A stretch of DNA of 64,000 nt. Origin: a virus. How positions within the stretch are numbered: position 1 is the first letter of the stretch; every line of letters begins with the position of its first letter. Below the pieces are notes generated by a model. The model saw only the letters and a program-made list of their open reading frames with translations. It was not told the DNA's origin and made no database searches. The stretch is from positions 25,684 through 89,683 of IMG/VR virus record IMGVR_UViG_3300040751_002893; one strand, 5' to 3'. The translations under genes and the position numbers were made by a program. Below, in pieces: positions 30,575 to 49,124 of the stretch.

Positions 30575-30781
30575 TCAAGGACACTTTTTGTCCTTTTCTA
30601 TAAAGTCCACAAGGTCAACGTCAACCTTGACAATGCGTGAACCTGTTTCGCAGTTAGGGAAATGCACAGTCAGTTCTGTGCTAGGGTAAAGCCACCCTGT
30701 GGATCTATAGTCCGTAACTACGCCTATTCCAAAGAACTTGTGCTGTTTTGTTTTTTTACGCTTTACTAGTTTACCAATCAT
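30575..30781 (-). CDS. SH3/KOW-like miniprotein
   Basis: MIGKLV..GIGVV; ends KKCP inside the palindrome. Confidence 0.6.
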   Translation of the reverse strand: MIGKLVKRKKTKQHKFFGIGVVTDYRSTGWLYPSTELTVHFPNCETGSRIVKVDVDLVDFIEKDKKCP

Positions 30782-30833
30782 TTTAACTCCGTTGTTGGTT
30801 GGTGATGTTTATAATGTATCTCGTTTGGTTGGT

Positions 30834-30989
30834 TTAGTCAAGGACATTTTTTGACCGTTTGTCTATTTTCCCTCTGCAAGCCATCTTGTTGGCCTGTTTT
30901 TTCTTGTCTCCATGAGATCCTGAGCCTGAGCCTTGACGTTTGATATGCTCAAGATGTGTGAGATTGCGAGGTTGTAACTTCTTTTTCAT
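30834..30989 (-). CDS. 51-aa basic peptide
   Basis: Manual translation: MKKKLQPRNLTHLEHIKRQGSGSGSHGDKKKQANKMACRG... Confidence 0.5.
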   Translation of the reverse strand: MKKKLQPRNLTHLEHIKRQGSGSGSHGDKKKQANKMACRGKIDKRSKNVLD

Positions 30990-31186
30990 GGTTCTTCCTA
31001 GTTTAAGTCGGTTGGATCAAAACAAGCTTTGATAAGCTCCATGAGAGCCTGTTCTGCTATCTCTCGGAGTTGTGGTGGGGTTCCATCTATATTCAAGGCT
31101 TGCAAAGCAAGATTGATGGATACAAAGGTTTCGTGGTCTTTTCCATCAAAGATGGAGGATAAAGGCATTTTGTTCATGGTTGTCTC

Positions 31187-31444
31187 CTATTGAAGAGGTT
31201 CTATTGTGTTGCTTATGTCGTTTAGGGTGTCGATAGACAAACCAGTAACGAATTCATATTCAGTACAGGTTCGGTAGCCACCCATACCGTTTGGGGTTTG
31301 TCTTGTGGTATGGGAAAGATAGACTACTGGCTTGCCATTTACGAGGATTAGATCGCCTTTCGTAAGGCTTTCAGCCCACATGTTCTTACCATGGTTTGGA
31401 TAGTGTTTGTGGAAGTTCTTTGCGAAGTTAAGCATGGTTCTCAT
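31187..31444 (-). CDS. Hypothetical protein
   Basis: GGAG RBS and its own promoter. Confidence 0.55.
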   Translation of the reverse strand: MRTMLNFAKNFHKHYPNHGKNMWAESLTKGDLILVNGKPVVYLSHTTRQTPNGMGGYRTCTEYEFVTGLSIDTLNDISNTIEPLQ

Positions 31445-31569
31445 TTTGTCTCCGTTTCAGTTGGTGATGTTAGTAATGTAACCCATTGAGAAAAAAAGTC
31501 AAATCGGGAGGACAGAATATGTCCGGCAAGGGTTCGTTCCCTTTAGGGAACGGATTGAGGAACTGGTTT

Positions 31570-31605
31570 GAGTTACGTAAACTTTTTTTGGCATAGATAT
31601 TGCAA
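31570..31605 (+). promoter_or_regulatory. sigma54 consensus site
   Basis: GAGTTACG-N11-TGGCATAGATATTGCA (31589). Confidence 0.65.
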
Positions 31606-31646
31606 GGGGTGTCTCTACTCTGAAACTGCCCCTCGCGCTATCTCAT

Positions 31647-31895
31647 TCACCGTTTGACTTTGATATGGTAGCTTGAACCTCGTTTATTGACATAGAGTGT
31701 CTCAATACCGTCCACATGCTCGTCACGTGCGATCGCATCAAGTAGGTGTTGCACGTCAAACTGTGTAACAGTTTCCTCGCTTATGACGTTCGCTACGAAG
31801 TCATGAAGATCTCCATCCCAATCACCCCAAAGGTTCTCTATGAAGTCAAGAGCCTCTTTCACTGCCTTGATGGTGACTGTTGTTTTATCCTTCAT
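31647..31895 (-). CDS. Hypothetical acidic protein
   Basis: Start MKDKTT after GGAGG. Confidence 0.55.
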   Translation of the reverse strand: MKDKTTVTIKAVKEALDFIENLWGDWDGDLHDFVANVISEETVTQFDVQHLLDAIARDEHVDGIETLYVNKRGSSYHIKVKR

Positions 31896-32015
31896 TTTTG
31901 CCTCCGTAGTGAAAGGTGTCGTACTTGGTTGTGCGCTTGATCTCCTTTGGAGACAGGACACGCACTTGTGTTCCCTTACGTGTGGTGATAATCACCTTGT
32001 CCATTGTGTATTTAC

Positions 32016-32569
32016 TCATGTATCCTCCTGTGGTTGTGTGAGTTGTGTGTAGTAGAAGCGCAGACTGCTCTCGCTTATGTGAGCAAAGCAATCGGGAGCG
32101 TCAATGTATCTGAGTGTGTAGAATCCATCTTTGACCGCAGTGCATACGCATATGCCGCTCTCGCTCTTCCATAGTGTGCCGACCATAGTTTCTCCTTGGT
32201 GGGGGTAGGGTAGTAGGGTAGTAGGTTAGGCTATCTTGGTCATGGATCTCTCTACGAAGAAATCACGAAGTGTCACATGACCTAGACTGGGTGTTGTAAA
32301 CACATAGTACAACGCCCCACCTGTTGTATAGTATTTGTCTTTGAGAATGTATATCTTGCCTTTTCGACATTTCCATAGTGTACCAATCATTCTTCTTCCG
32401 TTGGTGTTAAGGGTTCAAAGTATCTATCCAGTTCTCGTAGTCCTTTGACTACCCATGTGTCTCCGTTTGTTATACAAACCATGGTGAAGTAGGGTATGTG
32501 TGCATAGTCTATGCTTATGCAAGCGTATATGTGCTTACTGTGTCTTGATCTATACAACATCCCTATCAT
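32016..32569 (-). CDS. Three tandem miniproteins M(V/I)GxL(W/Y): 32016-32186, 32226-32390, 32387-32569
   Basis: Manual translations MVGTLWKSES.., MIGTLWKCRK.. and MIGMLYRSRH.. Confidence 0.6.
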
Positions 32570-32577
32570 GTTATCAC

Positions 32578-33816
32578 CTAGTCTATCGCTATGACACGTT
32601 CATTAGTTGTGAAGTAAGGGTTCTCCTTGCCTCGTTGGTCAGTCATCCACATGCGTTGGCACTTGCTGGCTATCGGCTTTGGAGCCTCCATATCTGTGAG
32701 GATGATGTGACCATCGAAACCGTTCTCATTGACGTATCGTGTCGGAGCGTCAAAGCATGTGCCGCCACACTTGACACGTTCCCATGTCTTGCGTTCACCT
32801 TTCTTCCAAGTGTAGACAAGACTCTCGTCCACTTCAGTATCAAAAGGCACAACGGTAAACTCTGCAAGGCTTGATAGGCTATTGAGTTCTGCGAAGAATG
32901 AGGCAAGCATTTCATCCGATACAGAACCAGACTGGTCAATGCTGATAGCAATCTTGGCTTGACGTGTAACCTTGCGACCGGCATGAATGTATGGAAACCT
33001 ACGGTTAAGTCTACGAACAGTCGAACGCTTATTGCTACGCTGTGAAGTCTTGATGAAGTATCTCAGAACCTTGCGCCAGTCAATCTTGGGAGTGATAGCA
33101 TCCATGATCTGCTTACGAACGTCTGCCGATACAGATCCCCAGCCTTGACCGCTTGAAGCATCCTTGGCGGCTTTCTCCATAGCATCTTTCAAACGCTCTT
33201 TGGCCATAGCCTTTGTCTCTTCGTCAACGTCACCCCAACCGCTATGGTCGTCAAGAACGTGGTCACCAAGAGAAGAGCCTTGGCCTTGGCCTTGTGATGG
33301 ATCGCCTTGGCCTTGACCGCCTTGACCGTCACCTTGGCCTTGACCATCGTCTTTCTTGAACTGCTCATCTTCTTCAATAATCTTAAGATAAGCCTCAGCA
33401 GATAAACCGACAGGATAGTCTGCGAAAGGTGTATCGGCTTTGCCGGGTATACAGCCACCATCGGGCAACATGTCAGCAATATGACTGTTGATTGCAAGGT
33501 CTGTCGCAACGTTCCACTTCATAGACATACCCTCAGCCGGAAGTCGTGTGGTGACATGCTCAAAGATGATGTGGTAAAACTCGTGCATTAGAACACCAAG
33601 CTTTTGCTTGTCTGTAAGGCTAGCCATGAACTCTGGATTGTAAAGCATCTCAAACTGTGCTGACTGTGGATTGATACGGACACCAGCAGTTGGAATGTGC
33701 TTGGATGGTGCTTTGTGAATACGTCTTGAAAGACTTGCGAAGAACGGTTCTTGTTGTAGCAAACGGAAAGTGTGCATGTTCAAGTCAAACTTTTCTGTTG
33801 TTTCGTTATCACTCAT
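32578..33816 (-). CDS. Metallopeptidase-VWA protein (DUF2201-like)
   Basis: LMHEFYH, WNVATDLAIN, a Q/G linker, IDQSGS, GGGT-like CGGT and ILTD. Confidence 0.85.
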   Translation of the reverse strand: MSDNETTEKFDLNMHTFRLLQQEPFFASLSRRIHKAPSKHIPTAGVRINPQSAQFEMLYNPEFMASLTDKQKLGVLMHEFYHIIFEHVTTRLPAEGMSMKWNVATDLAINSHIADMLPDGGCIPGKADTPFADYPVGLSAEAYLKIIEEDEQFKKDDGQGQGDGQGGQGQGDPSQGQGQGSSLGDHVLDDHSGWGDVDEETKAMAKERLKDAMEKAAKDASSGQGWGSVSADVRKQIMDAITPKIDWRKVLRYFIKTSQRSNKRSTVRRLNRRFPYIHAGRKVTRQAKIAISIDQSGSVSDEMLASFFAELNSLSSLAEFTVVPFDTEVDESLVYTWKKGERKTWERVKCGGTCFDAPTRYVNENGFDGHIILTDMEAPKPIASKCQRMWMTDQRGKENPYFTTNERVIAID

Positions 33817-34072
33817 TGGAATCTCCTTGTTGGGGTGATATAGATAACTTATCCGATTGGGATGGTTTTGTCAAACGTGGTGGACAAAAACTGTCCGGTA
33901 GTTTAGAAAGCTCTATTCTGTCTAGGTTGGTGTGCGCTTCCTCTATCTTTTGAGCTAGGGATTTGACTTCCAAAGGCTCCGACAGTTCTTCAAGCTCTGG
34001 TGGAAACTCAATCTTTTGTCTTTGTATTGCGTAATACGTTATATTGCTGTATTGTAGCTTTGGTCTACTCAT
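33809..34072 (-). CDS. Hypothetical protein
   Basis: GGAGG RBS; the 3' end contains a promoter/palindrome unit. Confidence 0.45.
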   Translation of the reverse strand: MSRPKLQYSNITYYAIQRQKIEFPPELEELSEPLEVKSLAQKIEEAHTNLDRIELSKLPDSFCPPRLTKPSQSDKLSISPQQGDSNE

Positions 34073-34289
34073 TGGTTCCTCCTGTCTTGAAACCCATAGG
34101 TGCTTTCTTCTTGGGCTTTTCTGCCTTGGGAAGTGCTTGTGGTGGCATAGCCATACCCATAAGGGCTTGCAAGGGTATTCCCATAGAGTTGCCTTGTGGT
34201 TGCATAGCCATGATTAGCTTGGATAATAGCTCGTCTGATATGTTCAGTGTAATATTAATCTCGTTATTGCTCATTGGTTTCTCCTGCAT
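34065..34289 (-). CDS. Hypothetical protein
   Basis: Overlapping-gene chain; start probably MSNNEI. Confidence 0.5.
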   Translation of the reverse strand: MQEKPMSNNEINITLNISDELLSKLIMAMQPQGNSMGIPLQALMGMAMPPQALPKAEKPKKKAPMGFKTGGTNE

Positions 34290-34617
34290 TGTCTACAATG
34301 CTTTTAAGTAGTTGTTGCTTGTGGGTTGGTAGTAAGGACTTTTGGTGGTTTAGGGTTTCCACGTCGGGCATTAGGAACAAAGACCAGTCTTTGAGAGTCT
34401 TGGATAGTTGCCTTGCCTGTTTCAATGTGATGTTGTGTCTGATGGAATAGCCTGTGGACATGTGTGATAATGTCCATGACTTTTCATCCTCTTTACGATG
34501 GACATAGAAAGGGAAGTCATTTCCGTAGGAACCATCACAATATGTCCAAACTGGATGATTATCTTCAAATGTTCGTATCTTGAATGTACCTTTGCGTATT
34601 CTCATAGGTGTCTCCAT
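34264..34617 (-). CDS. Hypothetical protein
   Basis: 117-aa ORF in an operon. Confidence 0.55.
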   Translation of the reverse strand: METPMRIRKGTFKIRTFEDNHPVWTYCDGSYGNDFPFYVHRKEDEKSWTLSHMSTGYSIRHNITLKQARQLSKTLKDWSLFLMPDVETLNHQKSLLPTHKQQLLKSIVDNAGETNEQ

Positions 34618-34679
34618 AGAAAGGGATTATAGTCTCCTTGTTTCAAGGCACAAGGAGCCAAAGCCAGCGAGGTGAAATG

Positions 34680-35741
34680 TTAGTTACCAGCGTTTAGGAT
34701 ACCGACAACATAGTCTTGGATGGAAGTGCCGTCTACTTCAATCGCCCAAAGTTTAGCGATATTGTAGGTTGATTCGTCAGTTTGAGCCATGGACTGCCAC
34801 AGAACCATGACGATCTCTGATGGAAGTTGCAAGAAATATTTTGCAAGGTTATCAAGACGAGTGTCTGATAGACGTTCTGCAAAGATGTTCTTTGCTTTCA
34901 TCTTTTCGACCATAGCATTGTGGTCATTGATCTTCCAACCTTTGATCTTGTCGAACTTACCATCATCTAGAAGATCTTCGATAGTGACTTGACGATCGTA
35001 CTTGTCAAGGAAGTCTTTGAAAGCTACTGCACCCTCAAAGCCGATGAAAGAGCAAGCGATATGGTAGGTTACAGATGAACCCTCAATCTCGTTACCCATT
35101 CCAGACAAAGTCTGAGACAATCGTTCCCAAGAACGTCTTGATGGGTAAACCTTGTTAGGCTCGTAGTCATCATTGTGTTCAAGATGGTTGTGGTTCTGAT
35201 TGATGAAGTCCCAGATCTCTTGTGCTACGTTACCCTTAGCCCAATCAAGCCAATCTTCTACCGTAGGTTCTACGTCAAAGACGGTATAGCGATCAAGCTC
35301 TGCTGGATCCATCTCACCTACTTGGTATTGAGAACCATGCTCTCCACCGTTTACACAAGCAAAGATAAGGGTTTCGGGATGCAGACTGCGACCGGCAATC
35401 TTGCGGCTATCACAAAGCTCAAAGATACCTTGGCGGACTTCAAGCGTAGCTCGGTCTACTTCGTCAAGGAAGAGGACGACAGGAGTATCACAAGCAGTCT
35501 TGAACCACTTTGGTGGACACCACTCAGTTACATCATTGTCTGATTGCTTTGGCAAGCCAAGCAAGTCACCCTCAGTCATTTGGCTAGCACGTCTTTCGAC
35601 AACAGGCAAACCGAGTTCTTTGGCTTTTTGGTATACGATGGTAGATTTACCGATACCATGCCGACCACGAACGAGGACAGGAAACTTTGCGTTAAGGATA
35701 GGGTTGATTACGTTAGAGAATGTTTTGAAGTCAATAGCCAT
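34680..35741 (-). CDS. MoxR-type AAA+ ATPase
   Basis: GRHGIGKS, DLLGLP, LFLDEVDRA, MDPAELDRY and PSRRSW. Confidence 0.88.
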   Translation of the reverse strand: MAIDFKTFSNVINPILNAKFPVLVRGRHGIGKSTIVYQKAKELGLPVVERRASQMTEGDLLGLPKQSDNDVTEWCPPKWFKTACDTPVVLFLDEVDRATLEVRQGIFELCDSRKIAGRSLHPETLIFACVNGGEHGSQYQVGEMDPAELDRYTVFDVEPTVEDWLDWAKGNVAQEIWDFINQNHNHLEHNDDYEPNKVYPSRRSWERLSQTLSGMGNEIEGSSVTYHIACSFIGFEGAVAFKDFLDKYDRQVTIEDLLDDGKFDKIKGWKINDHNAMVEKMKAKNIFAERLSDTRLDNLAKYFLQLPSEIVMVLWQSMAQTDESTYNIAKLWAIEVDGTSIQDYVVGILNAGN

Positions 35742-36139
35742 GGGAGGCCTCCGTTTGTTTTGTTGTTAGTTCTTCGTTATGAAGATGTTTATATTATAAC
35801 TAGGTTAGGGTTTGTTGTCAAGGACATTTTTTGTCCGAAGTTTATTTTTTTTCTTGTTGGTGGGTTCTCGTTTACATTTTTGTCTCCGTCAGTTGCTGAT
35901 GTTTATAATGTATCCTGTTCACTTCGATTCGTCAAGGACATTTTTTGTCCGCTCATCTTTTTTTCTTTTGGGCTGGCTATAGGTTGCCCACTGATCAAGC
36001 AGAAATGCAGTCATAAGGACTATCCCTGTGTTTATAAGGAACATGTAAAAAGCATTGTGATGAATCATGTTGTTCTCCGTTGTTGATGTTTATAATCTAT
36101 CCGATTGAGTTCAAAAAGTCAAGGACATTTTTTGTCCGT

Positions 36140-36394
36140 TTATCCAATATGGTACTTGCGTAGTATTGGGAGGTCGTTTTCTTCTATCTCTTGTGCATAA
36201 TATAACCGAAAACCACGATGGGTATATGGCGATATGTACACTCTGAGATCTTCGTCATAAGCAAGATCTTCTTGTCCAGACCATGCTTTTAGCACTTCAT
36301 GTTCATTTGATGTGTCTTTCATGTAGATAATAGCTTTATCCCAATACTCATGATCTCCGTCATAGATCGTTATGGTTAGTAAATGATATTTCAT
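36140..36394 (-). CDS. Hypothetical protein
   Basis: MKYHLL after GGAGG; own promoter and palindrome. Confidence 0.6.
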   Translation of the reverse strand: MKYHLLTITIYDGDHEYWDKAIIYMKDTSNEHEVLKAWSGQEDLAYDEDLRVYISPYTHRGFRLYYAQEIEENDLPILRKYHIG

Positions 36395-36619
36395 GTTTCC
36401 TCCGTTGTTGGATATTAGTAATGTATTGTGTTTTATCTCAATTGTCAAGGACATTTTTTGTCCACATTCTATCAAACTCTTTCTTAGTGAATATGAGATA
36501 GCGATCTTGTACTTTCACATGAACAAAATACTCATGTACAAGATGCTCTACAAGCTTGACTATGATACAAGATACGTTTGGGTTATCTTGTCTTGTGTAT
36601 ATTTCTCCGACTTCCATGT

Positions 36620-36808
36620 CTATTCCTCCTTATTTACTTTTTGTAGCATACCCCTAGGGAACGTGAATATGCGATTGTCTTGGAAGATGTGTATGTCATA
36701 CACACCCTCACGCCTTTCACACACAACCACGCCTATTATGTTCTCCAACCCATACATGTGTATAAGGTCGCCCACCAGTAGGGTACCAGTACGCATGTTT
36801 ATTTCCAT
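36620..36808 (-). CDS. SH3/KOW-like miniprotein
   Basis: VGDLI..IGVVV..LQKV. Confidence 0.55.
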   Translation of the reverse strand: MEINMRTGTLLVGDLIHMYGLENIIGVVVCERREGVYDIHIFQDNRIFTFPRGMLQKVNKEE

Positions 36809-37725
36809 GCGTTAATGTGGACTACAAGGTTTGCAGGTCGCCAATCGGACTTCATACCGTTTTGTAATTGCTCATAGGTTCTCTTCTTGACAAGAGTTCC
36901 AAAGGATTCTTTGTAGGAAGTAATCCACTCTTGGGGTAGGGGAGTAGGGGAGTTGGTGATTACAGACACCAATGAACAAGCTGGTGCACCATTCCAAAAG
37001 GAATGTATTCTACCGTTCTCTCCGACAGTGTTAAACTTCGCATGAAGATTATCAAGTCGTCTTGTCTCTCCATCTACCAACACACAAACTTCTATCGGAG
37101 AATGAGCGTCATTATGGTTCTTGCTCATACCAGAGAATACATTTACAGTATTCCAGTTTATCTTGGTGATGATACCAGTGCTTTTTACTGTTTCTCTATT
37201 GTTCCAGCTACCCTTTTCATAAGTGACTTGAACACAAGCACCAACAGATAGACCACCATCCAGTACAAGGTCTTTGTAGGCCGCGTGTCGCCAGTTCTCA
37301 TTGGCTTTGTAACAGTCTTTGAGAAACTGTTCCATGGTCGGACAAGTGCGTCTTGTATGGTCTTTGCCACCACAAAAGCCACATGTTCTATTGACTGCCT
37401 TGCGTTTGACTTTGTGTTCAAAGTTGAATCCACGTTCTTTCTGAACCTTGTATGCTTTGCGACAGTTACGGAACCATGCCGCAAGAGCATTGTTGGCTAC
37501 ATCATCAATAAGAGGATCAAAAGCCGCAGTGTGCCATGTAGCATAGTTGTAGCCACGTCTGATAAGATTACCATCTTTGTCTTTGGGAATCTCCAGTCTT
37601 GATAAGAAGTTCTCCCAATCACCTTTGACGTGTGGGCATTGGTATTGGTTGTGTCCTGTTTCTCGGCAATAGCCACATGTTGCTTTACTTCTGTTTGATG
37701 TGTTCTTATTTTCATGAATATTCAT
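36799..37725 (-). CDS. Protein with two CCHC zinc knuckles
   Basis: CGYCRETGHNQYQC and CGFCGGKDHTRRTC (CX2CX4HX4C); start MNIHEN. Confidence 0.7.
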   Translation of the reverse strand: MNIHENKNTSNRSKATCGYCRETGHNQYQCPHVKGDWENFLSRLEIPKDKDGNLIRRGYNYATWHTAAFDPLIDDVANNALAAWFRNCRKAYKVQKERGFNFEHKVKRKAVNRTCGFCGGKDHTRRTCPTMEQFLKDCYKANENWRHAAYKDLVLDGGLSVGACVQVTYEKGSWNNRETVKSTGIITKINWNTVNVFSGMSKNHNDAHSPIEVCVLVDGETRRLDNLHAKFNTVGENGRIHSFWNGAPACSLVSVITNSPTPLPQEWITSYKESFGTLVKKRTYEQLQNGMKSDWRPANLVVHINAWK

Positions 37726-37818
37726 GTTGTCTCCAATGAAATGTTGTTGATTGTTCGTTGTGAACATATTATTAACTTATTGTGTTTGGTTGAAAAAGTC
37801 AAGGACAGAAAATGTCCT

Positions 37819-38118
37819 TTATGGTTTAAGTGTGTGTTCAGACATGTCTATCTCCATTTCTATGCTCCAAAGAAGTTCTTGGCATTTGTCGAACATAGTT
37901 TCCAGTTCTTTTATTTTGAGCGTGTGTTCTGGGTTGTAGAGGGTTTCAAGGTTCTTTTCTGCCCATGTTAAATCCTCATCATTTTGATCAAAAACACCTA
38001 AGAGAAGCTCCAAGCTCTCAGAGCAAGCCACTTGCAAAGCACCTTTTCGTGTCATGTGGATACTGACTGCTTCTCTACCATCCCATGGTCTTGTTATTGT
38101 AACTTCGTATACGTTCAT
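37819..38118 (-). CDS. Hypothetical protein
   Basis: Likely start MNVYEV after GAGGTG. Confidence 0.5.
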   Translation of the reverse strand: MNVYEVTITRPWDGREAVSIHMTRKGALQVACSESLELLLGVFDQNDEDLTWAEKNLETLYNPEHTLKIKELETMFDKCQELLWSIEMEIDMSEHTLKP

Positions 38119-38287
38119 TGTTTCACCTCTTTGAGTTCTGTTGGGTTGTAATGATGTGTTTTGCCTGTTTTCAAGTTTGTTCCAGTGATATACACTCCAT
38201 GTGTATACCCTGTTATCACCACTAAATCTCCAAGCTGTGATGGAAAATGACTTGCTATTGCAACCACTTCGCATAGTGTTCCTATCT

Positions 38288-38923
38288 TCATACTCTTTCC
38301 TCTCCAGTGAGTTGTTTGATTGGTAGTAGATCCTTTTCGGGAATGAAGTCATACATGCCTATACAAGTTCCAGTCAAGTATACGACCATAATGTGGCTCT
38401 TTCCATAGCGACCAAACTTCTTGATATAACCAAGTTCATTGAGTCCACGCTCATTATACACTCTTACTAAATCACCTATTTGCATGCTATCACCTCCAGT
38501 TGGTATCCATTGATACCATAAACTTCTCCACTAGCCCAGTGAATGAGCCACCTATCTGCGACACCTATCTGTCGAATGACGATACCAATGTCTCCAAAAG
38601 GGTTTTCTACTACACTACCTGTTTTCATTTTATCTCCGTTGTTCGGTGTGATGTTTATAATGTATCCGATTGAGGCAAAAAAGTCAAGGACAAAAAGTGT
38701 CCGGCTTTGATTGTTGAGGTTTTAACTTCTTTATCTCGTATCTTTTGAACCAAACTCTCTTGTTGTGTACGCTTCTACCCTCGCAAAACCACTGTATCCC
38801 AAAGTCATAGTACCCTTTGGCCGGATAAACCTCCAATATGATACCAAAACCCTCGTAATACCTGTGGTTGTGCTTTAACTTCGCACCTTTGGCCGATAAC
38901 ACAACAAGATCGCCTATTTTCAT
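38288..38923 (-). CDS. Three MKxGDLV-family miniproteins: 38288-38485, 38476-38628, 38684-38923
   Basis: MQIGDLVRV; MKTGSVVE..GIV..LEVI (manual); MKIGDLVVL. Confidence 0.7.
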
Positions 38924-40155: not shown

Positions 40156-41095
40156 TCAAGGACATTTTTTGACCATGATTTCTTTTCTTACCCAAGAGCG
40201 TTCTCCGTCCATCCAGAACACCTCATACTCAAAGGTATCCATCGCCACAATAATACCCCAACACCAAGAGTTGATGTGGTGTTCTGCTAAATCACCTATT
40301 TTCATCTAGCACCTCTTTTCTTGACCATGGATCGCTTTGAGATCCATGAGCGATCACCATCATTCCAAAATATCTCATACTCATGAGTATTGACTGCTAC
40401 AATAATCCCCCAAAGACGAGATACAGAATAATGTTCTGCTAAATCACCTACTTTCATTGATCGCTCCTATTACAACGAACACGCTGGTAAACTGGTCGTC
40501 AGCCACCGGATCTGCTTTCAAGATCCATTTAACCTTTGTATATCCGTCTTTGCCCACTCTCTTGACGATACCTATGTTTCGCCACATGCGCCATTTCTCC
40601 GTTACTAAATCACCTTTCTTCATGCTAGCACCTTAAGTTGTTCTCTCGCCACACCTATCTCGTATGTGGTGTTTGGGATCTTCACTGCGTAGCTATCGAC
40701 AAATCCGGGTCGTCTGCAAACGTATATAACAATCCCAATCTTTCCACTGTACTTACCAAAGCCTTGTATCTGTACTAAACTTCCTACTTTTATTTTCATG
40801 GTGTCTCCTACTGTTTAATCTCTTTCCACTGTCGGCCATGCCCATCTTCATCTTGAACCCAGCCAAACACTTTTTCCACCTCTTTGTGTATCACCTCTAA
40901 ACATCCAGTGCCCAAAGAGTTACGACCACCAGTGTGAACGTTTAATAGGTCTGCTACGAAGCCATATGCGTCTACAAAACCCCTTACACGAAGAACCTTA
41001 TAGAATCCTAGTATTTCCTCTCCATACTTATGAATAACCAAGTCGCCTGTCTTAAAACCAGACAAATATTCTTTTCCTTTACTTCCGAAACTCAT
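40156..41095 (-). CDS. Five MKxGDL-family miniproteins: 40156-40305, 40302-40457, 40444-40623, 40620-40799, 40808-41095
   Basis: Manual translations: MKIGDLAEHH, MKVGDLAEHY, MKKGDLVTEK, MKIKVGSLVQIQGFGKYSGKIGIV (KOW-like) and ..FKTGDLVIH. Confidence 0.75.
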
Positions 41096-41311
41096 ATTTC
41101 CTCCTATATAGCCAGTTGGCCTTTGTAAAAGAACACGTTCTTGTGCCCTTGTCTCTCTAAACTATCTGCAAACCGTAAAGCTTGATACATAGTCATTGGT
41201 TTACTCTCATGCAGTTTATCACTGCTCACATAATAACATTTCTCTATTGTATCTAACATGTTGTCTCCTGTTGTTGAATACCTATATAATATAACTGATT
41301 GACCGAAATAG

Positions 41312-41833
41312 TCAAGGACATTTTTTGTCCTCTAATAAAAGCTTCCTCAGATGATCTTTATCCTCTTTTACTCGTTGCTCCATCTTACCTTTCAAGTCAA
41401 GCATCGCTTTCTTTATTGTATGATTATTCTCACCTTGTTTTATTGCAGAAACTATTTTGTTTGGTAGCTCTGCATAAGTGCATCTGTACTTCTTAAACTT
41501 CTTGCTCTTTGTTTCTCCAAGACCGACACATACAAAGGGGTTCGGTGTGTGTTGTCCTTGTTTCTCTAAGGCTATTTTAACTATATCATCCGGTGGTATC
41601 ACAATCCATATATCTTCTTTTGGATCATATCCCACACCTACTAGATACTTATACGGTCTAGTTTGGTTCCACGTTTTCTTTTTTGATTCTCCATAATACT
41701 CTGTATTCCCAATCGTAACTATGAAATCTCCTTTTGCTTTCCCTTTCGCTGACTTGTCTCCATTATCATCTATGAAAGGGCTTGAAGCTATTATCTTTTC
41801 CTCTGTTGTTTTGCCGCTATTTGTTATTCCCAT
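41312..41833 (-). CDS. Putative PD-(D/E)XK-fold nuclease
   Basis: G..TEEK..GDFIV..YGESK pattern; start MGITNS after AGGAG. Confidence 0.4.
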   Translation of the reverse strand: MGITNSGKTTEEKIIASSPFIDDNGDKSAKGKAKGDFIVTIGNTEYYGESKKKTWNQTRPYKYLVGVGYDPKEDIWIVIPPDDIVKIALEKQGQHTPNPFVCVGLGETKSKKFKKYRCTYAELPNKIVSAIKQGENNHTIKKAMLDLKGKMEQRVKEDKDHLRKLLLEDKKCP

Positions 41834-41852
41834 TTTACATCTCCTGTTGTCT

Positions 41853-42401
41853 CTATTCAATGTAACCGTTCTCTGCCTGTTCGTCAAGCAGAAACATATA
41901 TTCTTTCAGTTGTAAAGTTTCATACTTACTTTTCAGCCATTTCACTTTACACTTTGTCTTGTCAAGATCCTCGGTGACTATACCAAAGCCGATCTTGTCA
42001 AATACTTTTTTGTCTTTATGCCTTGCCAGTATCTTCTTCATGTTTCACCTCCCTTAATAATGTTATGTATGGGGTTGACCATAGGCCACCTTTCATTCTC
42101 GGATCTGTATCTTTCTCGAGTTGAGCAAAATAATGTACTATGTAGTATCCTGTGTCGCATATTTTTGTGATACATCCTATTGCAGTGAACCCTTTGTTGG
42201 ACACCTTTACTAAATCACCTATCTTCATCTTATCACCTCTAATCTATCTTCTTTCCATAATAATGTCTTTCCATCTATGAACACAAGCCATACGGTGTCT
42301 GTGCCTGTTGCTTTGCGCCTTAATACACCTATTTTGCCTAGGTATTTCTGGTGTTCCCAAGAATAGACACTGTTTATCCTAACTAAATCACCTATCTTCA
42401 T
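41853..42401 (-). CDS. Three SH3/KOW-like miniproteins: 41853-42041, 42016-42228, 42225-42401
   Basis: MKKILARHK..GFGIV; MKIGDLVKV; MKIGDLVRI..GKIGV..LEVIR (manual). Confidence 0.7.
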
Positions 42402-42741
42402 TGATCATTCTCCTAACCCATTCGTTACCATGCTCTTTCGCATACTCTGCAACATAGTCACTCTTGAACGTGAGCATTTTCTCATTCTTGATAACTACGT
42501 TTTCAAGCTGATAGCCAGCGATAAGGAATGTTTCATCCACATTTACTGATGGATCGAATGAGAGAATCACACGACACACTGCGAAAGGCATAGACTTTTG
42601 TTTCTTAACCATTTTGCCTGTCTTTGAGTCTTTGTATGGTTTTGCCCAATACTTTCTAAATGCAATCTTGTCTATGACTGCTGTTATTGCTTTGCCACCA
42701 TTGGCGAAGAACACATTCATTTTTGGTTTGATATAAGCCAT
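42388..42741 (-). CDS. Hypothetical protein
   Basis: GGAGG RBS and its own promoter. Confidence 0.6.
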   Translation of the reverse strand: MAYIKPKMNVFFANGGKAITAVIDKIAFRKYWAKPYKDSKTGKMVKKQKSMPFAVCRVILSFDPSVNVDETFLIAGYQLENVVIKNEKMLTFKSDYVAEYAKEHGNEWVRRMINEDR

Positions 42742-42793
42742 GCTTACCTCCGTTGTTGTTTACCTATATAATATAACTGATTGTCCGAAATAG

Positions 42794-43306
42794 TCAAGGA
42801 CATTTTTTGACCGGTGTTAAGATTGAAACGCTATGTGCATCAACAACCCCATTGTGTGCCCACCTAACTCTAACAACAGTGTCATAAGGACTTACCCATT
42901 CCACTATTCCTATCCAGTTCTTACCGTACTTGAACACTCTCATTACTAAATCACCTACTTTCATACTTCCACCTTTTGCACATATGTTTTTCTAACCTGT
43001 ATTATCTGTCCATCTGCTGGACAATACACGCGTATCCAGCCAGTCCATAAGCCTATTCCCATGTAAATCATAGGTGTCTTATCTAAATCTTTACTGACTG
43101 GTACAACGACATCACCTTTCTTCATCTAACACCTCCAAGGAATAAAAAGGAACCCACAGTGTCTTGTGTCCTACTTGTACTTTGTATTGCCCAAACTGAT
43201 TGATTGGGGCTAGAACTATACCTATGTATCCATGAACATCACCATGGATGGACATACCTTTGTTGTATCTGAATAGATCGCCTTTCTTAAAATCACTTCT
43301 TTGCAT
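42794..43306 (-). CDS. Three MKxGDL-family miniproteins: 42794-42964, 42961-43125, 43112-43306
   Basis: MKVGDLVMRV..KKCP; MKKGDVVVPV; MQRSDFKKGDLF..LEVL. Confidence 0.7.
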
Positions 43307-44036
43307 CTTTCACCGCCTTTGTTCTACACTTCTTAAGGAACTTCTCCACAACAATATACACTTTTGTGTCTCCGATAGGAAGAACACGATACAAGCGTGA
43401 ACCACCTTGTTTCTCTTTGTGAGAATAAGTACTGGCATAGGTCTTACCACCCAACGGTGGACTTTCGCCCAACACCATCATGGTCTTTTTACTAAGTTTC
43501 TGGATTGTATGAGGGTTGGCTCCATAGTAGTTTGTTCCACCGCTATGCTTATGTTCTTGAAGAACTGCATCTACACCGATGTTGGAACGGAACTGCACAA
43601 TCGCACCAATATCAAAGATTGGATCTTTCACATAACTCTCAAAGACATTGAAGTTCTCTTTGCGAAACATGCTTATGAAGAAAGCCATAATCTCTTGTGT
43701 AAGCTTGCCAGTTGCATGCAAGTCCTTTATCTCATCGACACGAGTATTGTACCATCTTTTGCGATCTTCCATCATATCCATGACATGGTTCATCTTCTTC
43801 TCCGAAGATAAAAACTTCTTTGCCAAAGACTTGTTGCGAAGATAGTCTTGACCAAAGGATGACCATAGCCACATAGCTTTCCATTGTGCGTTGGAGTATT
43901 CTTCTTTTTGGTACTCATACTCAAACAGGTATGTATTATACCATGCTCTATTGTTTTCCGACATCCATTCTTTTTCTTCTTCTGTGAGCTTGTTTATTCT
44001 TCCTAATAGGATCTCTTTTGTCTTTTCTATATTCAT
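43293..44036 (-). CDS. Hypothetical protein
   Basis: Start MNIEKT; leader nearly identical to that of 36799-37725. Confidence 0.65.
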   Translation of the reverse strand: MNIEKTKEILLGRINKLTEEEKEWMSENNRAWYNTYLFEYEYQKEEYSNAQWKAMWLWSSFGQDYLRNKSLAKKFLSSEKKMNHVMDMMEDRKRWYNTRVDEIKDLHATGKLTQEIMAFFISMFRKENFNVFESYVKDPIFDIGAIVQFRSNIGVDAVLQEHKHSGGTNYYGANPHTIQKLSKKTMMVLGESPPLGGKTYASTYSHKEKQGGSRLYRVLPIGDTKVYIVVEKFLKKCRTKAVKDAKK

Positions 44037-44109
44037 TTTGTCTCCAATGAAATGTTGTTGGTTGTTCGTTGTGAACATATTATTATCTTATTGTGTTGTG
44101 TCTATTTTG

Positions 44110-44944
44110 TCAAGGACATTTTTTGACCGATACGGATCTACTATCGTGCAAAAGGCTTATTCGATCCCAACAGTCTGTAAAGCCTGTATCTATTATAGAG
44201 ATTTGTATCGCGGCACTATCATTATCAATGTGTGTTATAACAAACATTCTATTCTTGTAATACCATCCAACATCTGCGTTGAATACTCTTAAATCACCTA
44301 CTTTCATACTAACACCTCCAGTTTTTCCTTGGCAAGACGAGGGTACCAACTACTATTTGAGCCGATAATGTAAACATCTGCGCTCCATGTTCCGTTGTTC
44401 ATAACAACACCTAGTTTGCCCAAGTATCTTTTATCTTCTGTTTCTTTAATCTTTACTAATGTTCCTACTTTCATTTTATCACCTCCAATGAACGAGCTAA
44501 ATCAAAACATATTCTATCGTATTTCAAAGAATATAGTTTTACGAACGCACTATCATTATATGGGTGCAGTGCTTCCATAACAATGTATAGCCCATGATGT
44601 TCGTTGTTTCTTATTTGCACCAACGTACCTTTATTCATAATTTCTCCACTCCATCTAAATCGCACCACAACCAATCCGATACTTCTTTCTTATTTTGAAA
44701 ATAAGCTCTGAACTGGCTATACCTACCTTTGTGTCTTATCTCTAAGACAATACCTATACCAATATAAGGCATCTTTATTAAATCACCTACTTTCATTTAT
44801 CACCTCTAAGTAATGTAAAAGAAAGCTTTCTGTATGACCACCTATAAACACATGGTAGCGAAAGTTTCCTCTGCGTGTTATTTCTCTGCGTAACACTATT
44901 CCTATTTCATTTGTATATTTGCAACGCACTAGTTTGCCTATCAT
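44110..44944 (-). CDS. Five MKxGDL-family miniproteins: 44110-44307, 44304-44474, 44471-44638, 44635-44796, 44783-44944
   Basis: MKVGDLRV, MKVGTLVKI..LEVLV, MNKGTLVQI..LEVIK, MKVGDLIKM and MIGKLVRC..LEVI. Confidence 0.75.
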
Positions 44945-45141
44945 AATGTCTCCATGTTTCATGATTACCTATATAATATAACATGTTGGTCGGAGTTGTA
45001 AAGGTCATTTTTTGTCCGTTTGTTAAAAAAGTTTATAAAGTTTGACAAATTATATGAAGTTTGTTAAAATTTTATGTAACTTCTTGATGAAGTTGAGAGA
45101 ACCGGCTATTGGCGGCTTACAGCGCAGATTCGGATGATTCT

Positions 45142-45348
45142 GTTATGTAAATAAAAATTGGCACAGTTCTTGCAAGGTCATTTTAACAAATTTGTTATAT
45201 TTTGTGAAAGTTACATAAAAATGACTCAAAGTTATGTAAATATTTTTTGGCACGATTCTTGCAATAGCGAAAAAGTGGCCTTGCAGACTATTTATTGTAG
45301 GTTTTGTGTTCTGAGTTATGTAAATCATTTTTGGCACAGTTCTTGCAA
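45142..45348 (+). promoter_or_regulatory. Third sigma54-site module (three sites)
   Basis: TGGCACAGTTCTTGCA (45159), TGGCACGATTCTTGCA (45248) and TGGCACAGTTCTTGCA (45332), each with GTTATG 17 nt upstream. Confidence 0.8.
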
Positions 45349-45381
45349 GGCGAAGTTTTTTAAGAAAGTTACATAAAATGC

Positions 45382-45410
45382 TTGACAAGTTTTAACAAAT
45401 TTGCTATAAT
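45382..45410 (+). promoter_or_regulatory. Consensus sigma70 promoter, antisense
   Basis: TTGACA-N17-TATAAT with extended TG. Confidence 0.6.
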
Positions 45411-45431
45411 ATATGAAACTTAGATAAAAAG

Positions 45432-45626
45432 TTATGTAAAGTTTTCTGCCAGAGTCAACTCGGACTCATAAGCCAAGATGGTATAGGCAGTTGAGATACA
45501 ATAGATGACATATATAACCCTTGTATCTCCTCCATAACCACAGACTCCATCAGCAAGGACAACCGACAGATACCTTTGACCATCAAGGTCATCGAAGTAT
45601 ACAAGATCACCAGTCCCAAAATGCAT
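45432..45626 (-). CDS. SH3/KOW-like miniprotein
   Basis: FGTGDLVYF..ESEL. Confidence 0.55.
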   Translation of the reverse strand: MHFGTGDLVYFDDLDGQRYLSVVLADGVCGYGGDTRVIYVIYCISTAYTILAYESELTLAENFT

Positions 45627-45870
45627 CGTGTTGCCTCAGTTCCATCATATCTTCTTCAGATAGGTGCACACGTATACGTGCGAGTATACATTCATAGAAA
45701 TCCATCTCGGCAAATATGATGGCAAATATCTTTGCTGTTGATGGGATATATTTCAAGTTAGTATGAATAACATATTCACTCCATATATCATTTATCCTTT
45801 GATTGACCAATATGTAAAGCTTTATAAGCTGATCGGGATCTTCCGGAAGTTTTACATCAGAAACTCTCAT
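45607..45870 (-). CDS. Hypothetical protein
   Basis: 87-aa ORF. Confidence 0.5.
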   Translation of the reverse strand: MRVSDVKLPEDPDQLIKLYILVNQRINDIWSEYVIHTNLKYIPSTAKIFAIIFAEMDFYECILARIRVHLSEEDMMELRQHDAFWDW

Positions 45871-45952
45871 AGGGGGGCACCCCCGTAGTAGGGTAGGTCT
45901 CTAATCAAGAAGAGGGGGGAGGGGGGTAGTAGGGTAGTAGGGTGGTAGAAGG

Positions 45953-46165
45953 TCATAATATCTTTATGTCTCCTTTCTCAATCAGTCTATGAAGAGTTGA
46001 CTCTCCAAGTATAGATACAGTACCATCAGCATAGTATATCTCGTAGTTGTTTCTCCACTTAATCAGATCGTTATCAACTTCCAAAGTACCACTTGTTAAT
46101 ACTTTGGAGATGACTCCCATCTTACCCATATCTTCTATAAGCGTCCCTACTTTGAGCTTTTCCAT
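45953..46165 (-). CDS. SH3/KOW-like miniprotein
   Basis: LKVGTLI..GKMGVI. Confidence 0.55.
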   Translation of the reverse strand: MEKLKVGTLIEDMGKMGVISKVLTSGTLEVDNDLIKWRNNYEIYYADGTVSILGESTLHRLIEKGDIKIL

Positions 46166-46863
46166 TTCACAAGCAACTCCTCTAATTTGTAGCGGTCGTA
46201 TAGTGTTAGACGATTTACATATACAAGAGTTCCATGGAGTTGTGGAAAAGGACCAAGGCCATGATAGCCAACCTTTATCGCGCTTAATACTCCAACAGCC
46301 ATTCCCTTGCTGTCAAACACTATCGAACCAGACGCACCGGGGAGAGCAAAGGATTGCATCATAAAAGAAAGCGGTGTGCATGTAGCAACTGTACCATTGA
46401 ACACTGACTTGTTTAGATCAGCAGGATATCCAGCATAGACCATTGTGTCTCCTGTGATATCAAGTTTCTTGTTTGTTCTATAGTTTATTGCTTTTGCAGA
46501 ATGCAATTCGTGTCTCGGCATAAGAAACGCTATATCGTTCTCGGCATCAACAGCAACAATATCAAGTTGAACCAAAGTCTTATAGTCTTCAACATACAGT
46601 GTTTCTTTCTCTCCTAAAACATGAGCAGCCGTTACAACAAACTTGTGACTGCCTATTCTAAAATAGTTACCAGAAGCATGTCCTTGTTCTATACCATTTA
46701 TGTGAGACACTATCCTAACAGAAGAAGCAATTGCTTTGTCATAGTTGAAATAATGGGCTGACTTGGTCTGTTCAAAAGACAAGACACCTCCCTTGTCATC
46801 GAACTCAAAACCTAAAGTACAGGCCAGTATTGTCAACAGTAACATAATAAAAAACCCCCTCAT
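46147..46863 (-). CDS. Trypsin-like serine protease, exported
   Basis: Signal/lipobox ILAC; VTAAHV, DIAFL and PGASGS. Confidence 0.85.
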   Translation of the reverse strand: MRGFFIMLLLTILACTLGFEFDDKGGVLSFEQTKSAHYFNYDKAIASSVRIVSHINGIEQGHASGNYFRIGSHKFVVTAAHVLGEKETLYVEDYKTLVQLDIVAVDAENDIAFLMPRHELHSAKAINYRTNKKLDITGDTMVYAGYPADLNKSVFNGTVATCTPLSFMMQSFALPGASGSIVFDSKGMAVGVLSAIKVGYHGLGPFPQLHGTLVYVNRLTLYDRYKLEELLVKWKSSK

Positions 46864-46906
46864 CCCCTATAGTAACTAGGAACGAGAGGGCTCAAACGCC
46901 GATTGG

Positions 46907-47293
46907 CTATGCTCTTTTATAGTCGTCTTCAAGTCTCACAACATCATCGATCTCAGGTGTTGAAACTTCAATCAATGTAACAGGTGAATCATCAGGGGCA
47001 CAGAAGCGATGGATCACACCCGGAAGTATACGAAATCTTTCCCCATATCCAAGAATTTTGCGCTCAAAACTGCTTACGTCAGGTGAGCCTAGCTCCAGTA
47101 TAAGGGTGCCGTGTTGAACGAAAATTGTCTCGTCTTTTAGCTCATGATATTGTCTAGAAAGTCTGTGGCCTTTTTTGATATAAAGGATCTTTCCAAGGTA
47201 TTTATCATTCTGTGCGAAACGAATCTCGTGTCCCCATGGACGAGGGTCAATGAATTCTTCCATTCCTTTTGTTATTTTACTTCCATCAGCCAT
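46907..47293 (-). CDS. Cupin, mannose-6-phosphate isomerase (type II C-terminal)-like
   Basis: RPWG, LSRQYHELKDET, IHRF and IEVSTPEIDDVVRLEDDY. Confidence 0.8.
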   Translation of the reverse strand: MADGSKITKGMEEFIDPRPWGHEIRFAQNDKYLGKILYIKKGHRLSRQYHELKDETIFVQHGTLILELGSPDVSSFERKILGYGERFRILPGVIHRFCAPDDSPVTLIEVSTPEIDDVVRLEDDYKRA

Positions 47294-47981
47294 TGTTATC
47301 TCCTATTATTTTATTTGACTTACGTATATTCTTCACTGCGTCCAGTGGCCTTAGATTGATTAGAGCCCAGCATTTTTGAAACCCTTCGTCATCCATTGAC
47401 TCATACTCAAATGTACTCTGCGGTATAATGTGATCTATATTCCACACAGGGTTGTCTTTAGTATATTTTCGTATTGGGCCCCAATTATCCCAGTTCATCC
47501 AAGGCTCAAATTGTTTCTCCAAGTGTTGCTTTAGTTCTTCTACCGTATAGGGCAACTTTTCAAAACAAGAGCGTTCTTTGTTTTCCCTCAATGAGTTTGT
47601 AATAGATACGCTGATATTCTTTCTTAATTTCCATACTGGGTCTGTTTTTCTTTTCTGTCTGTACTTTGCTCTATATTTTTCACTAGTAGCATAAGAGTGG
47701 GACTTGCTTTTTCTACATTCTTTGCAGATAGACCTGAACCCTGTTTTATTCTTATTGTGCTTATGAAAATACTCTGAGGTACAGGGCTTTTCTATCTTGC
47801 AGTGATTGCATATTTTGCTCTCAGGAGTGCAATAAGAAAGATTTTCAATTCTTTTTTTTCTGTGTTCTTTATCACAGTCTCTACAATGAGAGGCTAATCC
47901 TGATTTCTTATTGACTTCTTTTGGAAAGTAAGTCAAATTATATTGCTTCGTAATGAAGCATCTGCTACATTCTTTATTCAT
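47286..47981 (-). CDS. HNH homing-endonuclease-like protein with CxxC repeats
   Basis: Two Zn-finger-like CxxC units; LKQHLEKQF..WNIDHIIP..NLRPL..NIRKSNK. Start MNKECS after AGGAG. Confidence 0.8.
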   Translation of the reverse strand: MNKECSRCFITKQYNLTYFPKEVNKKSGLASHCRDCDKEHRKKRIENLSYCTPESKICNHCKIEKPCTSEYFHKHNKNKTGFRSICKECRKSKSHSYATSEKYRAKYRQKRKTDPVWKLRKNISVSITNSLRENKERSCFEKLPYTVEELKQHLEKQFEPWMNWDNWGPIRKYTKDNPVWNIDHIIPQSTFEYESMDDEGFQKCWALINLRPLDAVKNIRKSNKIIGDNNG

Positions 47982-48004
47982 TTTATTTCTCCTATTTAGA
48001 AAAT

Positions 48005-48072
48005 GTAATGATAGGAGTAATCCTAGAAATAGGCAAGGAAACACTGGCCGGTGCTGTCCTCACTACCATTAC
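48005..48072 (-). ncRNA. Putative structured leader RNA upstream of the HNH gene
   Basis: GTAATGGTAG/CTATCATTAC closing stem enclosing two hairpins. Confidence 0.4.
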
Positions 48073-48108
48073 TATAAATAGTTTAGAAAAAGATAAAACG
48101 AAAATCAT

Positions 48109-48321
48109 CTAACTTTTCCATATTATCTCCGGTTCTTTAATACAGTCTTTCTCGTTCGGATCAAGAAAGAGAAGTGCGTTCTTTGTCATTATGTGCTGAG
48201 TATGTTTGTGAGACTTTGGGCTAATCCATCTTACTAAGACTTTGTATCCATGGTCTTCAAGTACCACACCAAAACCCAATATTTCAAAGAACTTTTGTTG
48301 TTTATGTCTCACTAGTGTCAT
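48109..48321 (-). CDS. SH3-like miniprotein
   Basis: LVRHK..LGFGVV..VRW, similar to 41853-42041. Confidence 0.55.
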   Translation of the reverse strand: MTLVRHKQQKFFEILGFGVVLEDHGYKVLVRWISPKSHKHTQHIMTKNALLFLDPNEKDCIKEPEIIWKS

Positions 48322-48565
48322 CAGTCACCTCTTTGGCTAGATGAGCAATGGTATCGTCACAACCACCAACAAGAATCTCTTTGTTATCTATAATTGTAAC
48401 AACAGGAATAGTTGGGTGGCTGTACATCTTCTTGATCTCTTCAAGTTTTTCTGGATTTTCATCAAGCATTTCAACATAAAAGCATTTGCCTTTTCTGATT
48501 AGCTTGTTGACTACCTTGATGCAGTAAGGACATGTTGACCTTCCATAAACTATGTATTTTTTCAT
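48302..48565 (-). CDS. Glutaredoxin
   Basis: CPYC, TIP and VGGCDD. Confidence 0.9.
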   Translation of the reverse strand: MKKYIVYGRSTCPYCIKVVNKLIRKGKCFYVEMLDENPEKLEEIKKMYSHPTIPVVTIIDNKEILVGGCDDTIAHLAKEVTDDTSET

Positions 48566-48618
48566 TGTTCCTCCGTTTTCTAATTGTTTTAGTTGAAAAA
48601 TAATTGTTTTAGACAGAA

Positions 48619-48912
48619 CTAATCTCTCAGTAACTGTTTAAAACTTTGCTTTTGTATCTTTGTCTCAATCAAACCAGGGTCTCCAACAACTGTAACATTG
48701 GAAACATAAGAAGAGAAATTCATTCTAATGTCCGTGAATGTTGTGAAGTTCTGATTAAGTCCCAGACCTATCTTCCCTTCTTGCAGTTGCTGTTTAATCT
48801 GTCGGTTCTCTTGCATGAATACAATTTGATTAGGGTTTACATATATCGTATTCAACATGTAATTTCCTTTTGAGTCTTTCTTGATCTCCACCAATTCTAC
48901 TAATGTGCTCAT
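48619..48912 (-). CDS. Hypothetical protein
   Basis: Operon-coupled ORF; IYVNPNQIV. Confidence 0.6.
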   Translation of the reverse strand: MSTLVELVEIKKDSKGNYMLNTIYVNPNQIVFMQENRQIKQQLQEGKIGLGLNQNFTTFTDIRMNFSSYVSNVTVVGDPGLIETKIQKQSFKQLLRD

Positions 48913-49124
48913 TACGCTACTCCTACATATCTAACATCTTTTGTGTCTACTCTCCAGTAGTTCTCATTGATAAACAACAATGCTTGTCTACCAACATACT
49001 TGATAAAAATACCAAGCGTTGGCTTTTGAAGATATGTGTATTTATCAATGAGGTGAAGTTCCGACTGTGTTTGTGTTAAACAACTGTTAGCCGGAACCCT
49101 TACGAGATCACCCTTCGCTAGCAT
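48912..49124 (-). CDS. SH3/KOW-like miniprotein
   Basis: KGDLVRV..LGIF. Confidence 0.55.
   Translation of the reverse strand: MLAKGDLVRVPANSCLTQTQSELHLIDKYTYLQKPTLGIFIKYVGRQALLFINENYWRVDTKDVRYVGVA

Follow-up and report, generated by a model that had tools for sequence, protein, structure and literature searches.

The window analysed here, a 64,000-nt stretch (positions 25684-89683) of the 89.7 kb IMG/VR virus record IMGVR_UViG_3300040751_002893, carries all of its sizeable open reading frames (ORFs) on the minus strand, and among them is a family of small, divergent, paralogous proteins encoded in short gene chains. Coordinates below are those of the window. Using 15 seed ORFs, we built leave-one-out hidden Markov models (HMMs) and searched them against the 874 ORFs of the whole record. 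Every seed was regained at rank 7 or better, with E values from 4e-8 to 0.11 (E<=0.01 for 11 of 15), and iteration of the HMM converged on 20 ORFs of 49-79 aa, whose positions all fall within 30575-48321 on the minus strand. Four more ORFs (starting at 38115, 40808, 44110 and 44471) are probable members, having the family motifs and a position in a chain with HMM E values of only 0.04-0.6. The original prediction of more than 20 such miniproteins was therefore about right, but one of its candidates, 48912-49124, was not supported, with a profile-profile (hhalign) probability of just 15%. The trio 32016/32226/32387 (32016-32569), whose proteins start with MIGTLW, was also rejected (profile-profile probability 8.5%).

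Members were present in all five clusters that had been predicted. The first holds 38288-38485, 38476-38628 and 38684-38923, recognized by HMM and junction, and is ATGA-coupled, through 38288-38485, to the 58-aa probable member 38115-38291 (HMM E 0.05-0.15). The second is a chain of four, 40156-40305, 40302-40457, 40444-40623 and 40620-40799, with overlaps of 4, 14 and 4 nt, beside which lies the 95-aa probable member 40808-41095, extended at both termini (HMM E 0.06-0.6). Two chains of three follow: 41853-42041, 42016-42228 and 42225-42401, supported by HMM and AlphaFold, and 42794-42964, 42961-43125 and 43112-43306, supported by HMM and junction. The chain of five at 44110-44962 combines the firm members 44304-44474, 44635-44796 and 44783-44944 with the probable members 44110-44307 and 44471-44638. 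The true start of its last gene is likely the ATG at 44944, not 44962; the longer form, 44783-44962, had been considered as a deletion fusion and was rejected, as its MKHGDIM extension is a leader that also stands upstream of the first gene of the related record L009. The remaining members, all found by HMM iteration, are 30575-30781 (68 aa, the last in its unit), 36620-36808 (62 aa, with an N-terminal extension), the solitary 45953-46165 (70 aa) and 48109-48321 (70 aa), which is also a blastp-detectable paralogue of 41853-42041.

Five related virus records were found, L009 and L010 via a neighbouring protein and three more via a 25-nt junction string; one of the five is a complete 191.7 kb genome. 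They contain 22, 28, 28, 21 and 25 matches to the family profile, and this range of 21-28 copies has no direction, so that the library cannot be called expanding, as had been proposed. Our own gene calls yielded 151 members in six regions, falling into 102 clusters at 50% identity, of which 70 occur in one region only. In a wider database search, 415 representatives matched the family profile at E<=1e-3. The long proteins among them are eukaryotic Tudor/Agenet arrays, KOW arrays, one TIR protein and tandem DUF1918/PsaE-like repeats; the profile thus cross-matches the wider SH3 superfamily, and 415 is an upper bound. Among the best 150 representatives, 133 are of 100 aa or less, and 125 of these 133 start with the N-terminal motif. 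The database relatives are unnamed metagenomic proteins throughout, several from Tara Oceans data. Natural fused forms with tandem barrel domains in one chain were also seen, namely P0033 (370 aa, five stretches) and P0096 (301 aa, four stretches).

The paralogues in the window have diverged widely. Significant pairwise blastp matches were obtained for only three member pairs (40156/40302, 42225/44304 and 41853/48109), and the pairwise identity had a median of 22.6% and exceeded 40% in 2 of 190 pairs. In the HMM alignment of 150 members, the conserved positions were M-K-[VI]-G-D-L-V, I-G-[IV]-[VI], G27, V34, W36, [DN]-G, W43 and L-E-V-[IL], and almost no information was found between strands 1 and 2 and at most surface positions. 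The conserved glycine and hydrophobic positions coincide with predicted strands and turns. Net charge ranges from -12 to +12, and the quartiles of the isoelectric point (pI) are 5.2, 7.9 and 9.4. The pair 40156/40302, previously described as a recent duplicate, is indeed related, sharing 31 of 47 residues (66%) and about 71% nucleotide identity, but each gene has a separate orthologue in L010; the duplication is therefore older than the split of these phages.

Two members were modelled by AlphaFold with paralogues as alignment input, 36620-36808 being one row of that alignment. The models of 42225-42401 and of the divergent 41853-42041, which is without the GDLV start, reached a mean predicted local distance difference test score (pLDDT) of 96.3 and 87.9, respectively, and had the same order of elements (b1-short helix-b2-b3-b4-b5), a five-stranded SH3-like barrel. 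The prediction of a small beta-barrel was thus borne out in both members modelled. VIA-align gave Z 9.1 to DSIF KOW6-7, PetP and NusG KOW, with a root-mean-square deviation (rmsd) of 1.3-1.8 over 50-57 residues, and Z 8.0-9.0 to Mind bomb repeats, NdhS, the Hpy99I N-domain, YorP and PsaE; in total, 12 PDB chains had Z>=8. Foldseek ranked the same SH3-like set in the PDB, with no match at E<=1e-3 for either model, and found five matches at E<=1e-3 in BFVD, all uncharacterised phage proteins. The predicted fold of the two members is an SH3-like small barrel, for which KOW is one of several equally good labels.

We compared the members with the known proteins of this fold. The five-stranded barrel of the two models recurs in NusG/Spt5/ribosomal KOW domains, PetP, NdhS, PsaE and YorP (PDB 2xhc, 5ohq, 7r0w, 6hum and 2heq), with Z 8.4-9.1 and an rmsd of 1.3-1.9 over 50-57 residues, and the members show a KOW-like pattern of G-D..V and G.IG.V. 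In contrast to these proteins, the members stand alone, in 20-35 divergent copies per genome, and have no significant sequence match to them. In a Pfam scan of 23 members, none reached any cut-off, and no single family drew matches from two or more members. PF00467 (KOW) matched none of the 23 at E<=0.1, nor did the models of YorP (PF09629), DUF1918, DUF4314 or PsaE; DUF1918 and PsaE matched, weakly, only the distant fused proteins P0033 and P0096, and DUF4314 turned up only as a language-model neighbour. The best KOW-type scores were E 0.057 (13.8 bits) for KOW6_SPT5 and E 0.15 (12.4 bits) for KOW4_SPT5, against a cut-off of 27. The latter is the best match of 40620-40799, which does not match PF00467, and the "textbook KOW motif" ascribed to this ORF was therefore not confirmed. 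One of the 23 members weakly matched a PHROG (phrog_21012, E 8e-4), the NCBIfam scan of the members gave scattered matches at chance level, none significant, and the family profile searched against PDB sequences had a best E of 0.14. The members are stand-alone ORFs of 49-79 aa, with neither the NGN domain nor the ribosomal-protein context of the KOW family.

The genes of a chain meet in a characteristic coding junction. The LEV tail codons of the upstream gene, YTN GAG GTN, which write the last strand of its protein, contain GAGGTG, the Shine-Dalgarno sequence of the next gene, which opens with the nucleotide-conserved ATGAAR.TAGGTGATTTAGT. At 44780-44806 (minus strand), a full example, the LEV codons with the Shine-Dalgarno sequence GAGGTGAT lie ahead of the next gene's ATG. 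The strict junction (GAGGTG, spacer, ATGAAR.TAGGTGAYYT) was found at 4 sites against 0 expected, and the start motif ATGAARNTAGGTGATTTAG with no more than one mismatch at 9 sites, again with 0 expected; the minus strand carries every one of them. For the 116 members that are closely followed by another gene in the six regions, the commonest overlaps were 4 nt (45), 14 nt (28) and 10 nt (14). In the 14-nt class, to which 44780-44806 belongs, the upstream stop TGA lies within the GGT GAT of the next gene, producing an ..INESR tail. The junction can therefore encode tail, ribosome-binding site, stop/start overlap and the next N-terminus at once, as predicted, but its full form occurs at a minority of gene boundaries. 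A motif [LIMV]E[VIL] within the last 12 aa was found in 70 of 116 coupled but only 6 of 35 uncoupled members (odds ratio 7.4, p 6e-6), and this tracking of coupling is evidence of dual coding. Of the 133 short proteins in the set of 150 best representatives, 61 carry a terminal ESR and 5 a terminal KCP, indicating that the same joints are widespread in metagenomes, with the caveat that the query profile favours such matches.

Over the first seven codons, synonymous sites vary less than the encoded residues alone would demand. Usage was examined in codons 4-7 of 81 of the 151 members, with the whole-gene background and codons 2-8 of 202 non-family genes as controls. GGT was used at 75% in the family (38% in the whole-gene background and 44% in the non-family codons 2-8), GAT at 93% (60% and 62%), TTA at 67% (15% and 39%) and GTA at 54% (20% and 47%). 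A residual extra conservation thus remains for GGT, GAT and TTA beyond the general 5'-end bias. In most members (e.g. 44783-44788), the GGT GAT of codons 4-5 also spells GGTGAT, which is complementary to the 3' end of 16S rRNA, and the joint therefore carries a second Shine-Dalgarno-like site shortly behind the start.

Each chain is preceded by a cassette composed of a 5-bp stem-loop (GGACA, 5 nt, TGTCC) abutting TTGAC. Searching for a 20-nt match to the stem-loop plus TTGAC identified 14 cassettes against 0.06 expected. Within the window they are confined to 29880-45017 on the minus strand (low-coordinate ends 29880, 30574, 30837, 35817, 35931, 36118, 36444, 37798, 38683, 40155, 41311, 42793, 44109 and 44998). 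The repeat families D1-D3 place a TAYAWT-type -10 box 17 nt after TTGAC, followed by a shared leader with a ribosome-binding site. Judged by their sequence, these candidate units of a stem-loop and a sigma70-type promoter resemble the promoter-early stem-loops (PeSLs) of T4-type phages. Chain-terminal proteins such as that of 30575-30781 end in ..KKCP because their last codons run across the stem-loop until the TGA contained in TTGAC closes the frame. The palindrome GGACA-N5-TGTCC directly precedes the -35 box in 14 of 14 cassettes and could be a repressor operator rather than, or besides, a terminator. At 35817-35950 (minus strand), two cassettes lie 114 nt apart with no ORF of at least 38 aa between them in our gene calls, which may be an empty slot.

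Comparison of the window with L010, its closest relative, revealed how the chains differ between close relatives. The two are collinear with 73-95% nucleotide identity, and the neighbouring enzymes are 97-98% identical in protein. Chained alignments left 14 gaps, which we took as break points. For nine of them, an edge falls at -15 to +22 nt relative to the start codon of a member, and two lie in cassettes; the other three are an HNH-like gene insertion, an 11-nt repeat of the leader with the ribosome-binding site, and a member's C-terminal edge. Junction repeats, 4, 10, 17, 20 and 30 nt long, border five insertions or deletions (indels) of whole members. In addition, a replacement in one member starts at codon 7, spans the next cassette and reaches the leader that follows, and in another member the interior alone was replaced. 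The orthologue of 30575-30781 is displaced in L010, lying between the orthologues of 38684 and 38476, and the position that matches 40808-41095 holds another member. Differences from relatives therefore do break at the junction, as the idea of shuffling through junction microhomology would have it, but recombination at that site is inferred.

The retained orthologues are under purifying selection. Their median identity was 89.5% in 18 family pairs and 88.5% in 24 other pairs, and the pooled ratio of nonsynonymous to synonymous substitution rates (dN/dS) was 0.25 in 17 family pairs and 0.13 in 21 other pairs; individual family orthologues had dN/dS of 0-0.53 at dS of 0.06-1.6. The low dN/dS argues that these ORFs are real genes, and in none of the six regions are frames, starts or coupling disrupted. 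Rapid point substitution of the interiors was rejected, given the conserved orthologues; the interiors that had been called hypervariable do vary between paralogues, outside the conserved positions.

Taken together, we hold with moderate confidence that this region is a hyperplastic stretch of accessory genes in a marine, uncultured and probably T4-type phage, occupied by a lineage-specific, uncatalogued family of SH3/KOW-like miniproteins (~50-80 aa, 20 firm copies) that lie in coupled chains behind PeSL-like cassettes, turn over as whole genes and probably act as binders. Host RNA polymerase would transcribe the chains early, and translation would proceed by coupling. The repeated junction and the cassettes would be sites of homologous or short-homology recombination, by which whole genes may be deleted, inserted or replaced with the operon unbroken, and the proteins would constitute a diversified set of small binders for host takeover or counter-defence.

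Among described systems, modular shuffling by PeSLs comes closest, and the window cassettes match the PeSL definition as given in the available text of Arbiol et al. (2010; PMC2839356) and Comeau et al. (2014; PMC4122927). Both systems have a repeated stem-loop with a near-consensus sigma70 promoter between small non-essential ORFs and are limited to a variable region, the relatives of the present phage having a T4-type capsid; in both, indels and replacements between close relatives end at a repeated regulatory sequence, as do the two L010 gaps that lie in cassettes. In contrast to the PeSLs as described there, most break points here (the 9 of 14) fall in the coding junction within operons (tail, ribosome-binding site, start and first seven codons) and not in intergenic cassettes; the cassettes flank one protein family instead of unrelated ORFans; and the stem sequence (GGACA/TGTCC) is a different one. 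In the present system, the main probable exchange points are coding joints within operons, and a single protein family forms the cargo.

Several observations weigh against our reading. The function of the proteins is inferred entirely, and their range of charge suggests no single type of ligand. Two of ~24 members were modelled, both with family alignments as input. A generic promoter scan gave no overall enrichment (54 sites against 47.2 expected), and a 5-bp stem is weak for a terminator and might be an operator instead. Much of the synonymous bias (GTA, AAA and part of TTA) is also present at the 5' ends of unrelated genes, and in the 14-nt overlap class the overlap itself dictates GGT (24 of 24). 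Finally, where genes share their first 20 nt, any whole-gene indel will break there, and the break-point pattern is therefore no proof of junction recombination.

The last two points are what could be expected if the junction were kept for translation only and were no recombination device, with illegitimate events or unequal crossing-over supplying the changes and selection retaining those indels that preserve coupling. The junction would then combine an upstream tail that contains a strong Shine-Dalgarno sequence, initial codons that are AT-rich and unstructured, and a stop codon within GGTGA. The TTA and GTA usage already seen in codons 2-8 of the 202 non-family genes fits this explanation, as do the GGT codons that supply the stop in the 14-nt class and the LEV motif that tracks coupling. 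Break points alone cannot separate joint recombination from selection for coupling-preserving indels. However, GGT (29 of 41 in the 4-nt overlap class) and GAT exceed the 5' control, the five indels are flanked by junction repeats, and recombination between short regulatory repeats was demonstrated experimentally for T4-type PeSLs in the available text of PMC2839356; we regard a purely translational role as rather unlikely. At the opposite extreme, the junction might be a selected, integrase-free gene-cassette system, a ~30-nt element that serves as tail, ribosome site, stop, start and recombination site and lets T4-type marine phages assemble, one operon after another, changing repertoires of SH3-like binders from an open pool against variable host defence or takeover targets. 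This proposal, whose open pool draws on the 70 clusters restricted to one region, is one we put forward only tentatively.

The same single-region clusters could also arise if the arrays were mostly neutral or selfish amplification, in which a recombination-prone unit spreads by unequal crossing-over with little gain in phage fitness. Between two phages with 90-98% identity in neighbouring genes, several members occur in one but not in the other, and in a cyanophage, according to the available text of PMC4503421, loss of an ORFan region raised laboratory fitness. The purifying selection on retained orthologues, the intact frames, starts and coupling in six regions and the conservation of fold-determining positions over 150 members argue against it, and we consider it improbable. 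As for the proteins themselves, the original prediction had mentioned NusG or ribosome mimics. On such a view the members would be stand-alone KOW domains that contend for RNA polymerase, Rho, S10 or rRNA with NusG, Spt5-like factors or the KOW proteins of the ribosome, thereby reprogramming host transcription and translation. NusG KOW and DSIF KOW are among the top structural matches (Z 9.1), weak SPT5-KOW Pfam and PDB sequence matches exist (E 0.06-0.3), and pI exceeds 9 in 12 of 20 window members, yet PetP, NdhS, PsaE, YorP, Mind bomb and Tudor domains score as well (Z 8-9), and none of the 23 members reaches the cut-off of any KOW model. Furthermore, 20-35 very different copies per genome with such a spread of charge are ill-suited to one conserved target. 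The sole specific support for mimicry is the shared, predicted fold, and we give this idea little credence.

Large viruses are known for gene-family accordions and tandem paralogue arrays, whose copy number shifts through repeat recombination in what is presumed to be host-virus conflict. The present arrays are alike in that the copy number of one family changes by recombination between repeats, if our reading holds, but they differ in that the copies are old and divergent instead of recent amplifications, and the junction alone stays alike. If the junction is truly an exchange point, it would be a natural cassette system within operons that needs no dedicated recombinase, and the PeSL idea would extend from intergenic regulatory repeats to a coding joint. 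The junction also illustrates how the ribosome-binding site of a downstream gene can shape the C-terminal motif of the protein encoded before it, and it cautions that the conserved termini of small-protein families are not necessarily functional. The family is large, with several hundred 50%-identity representatives in metagenomes, and is absent from Pfam, PHROGs and NCBIfam; we found no description of it or of the junction in the literature searched, paywalled papers and supplements being outside its scope. Its barrel is a compact natural binder scaffold, and an uncatalogued family at the usual phage site of host-takeover and counter-defence genes is a reasonable source of new small inhibitors.

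The surrounding genes encode a DnaE-type polymerase, a UvdE endonuclease, a DUF2201 metallopeptidase/VWA protein, an AAA ATPase, a trypsin-like protease, PhoH-PIN, ClpP and an amidase, and the ORF 49765-51339 looks GroEL-like in sequence. A search for tRNA genes in the window found none. Against GenBank phages, blastn of 38001-46000 gave no match, tblastn of member 42225-42401 gave none at E<=0.1, and tblastn of DnaE gave matches of less than 32% identity throughout; accordingly, no cultured relative or host was found. A Gp23-type major capsid protein is present in the relatives G001 and G003 (E 1e-62), and the lineage is therefore T4-type in capsid; the gene was not found in the window's own record, for which CheckV completeness is 49%. 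T4 itself, unlike this phage, has a replication polymerase that is not of DnaE type.

Other repeats and insertions were observed in the window. A 231-aa ORF with an HNH-like ..DHIIP.. motif (47286-47981, minus strand; no Pfam match at E<=1e-3) lies inside an 861-nt segment that is missing from L010 and L009, where 12 nt stand in its place beside a cupin gene; from its sequence, the segment looks like a mobile homing-endonuclease insertion. A 90-nt repeat comprising promoter, leader and first codons (37718-37807 and 44029-44118, 88% identical) precedes a pair of larger genes, the paralogues 36799-37767 and 43293-44078 (blastp E 2e-6), both without a Pfam match. The repeat family D8 has five copies of a 36-nt unit, located at 45142-45350 (plus strand) and at 31572-31607; the unit contains TGGCAC-N5-TTGCA, which resembles a sigma54 -24/-12 site, on the strand without genes. 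The G-rich family D10 (32198-32233 and 45914-45949) consists of GGGTAGTAGG units on the plus strand, is thus C-rich on the coding strand and lies directly upstream of minus-strand genes.

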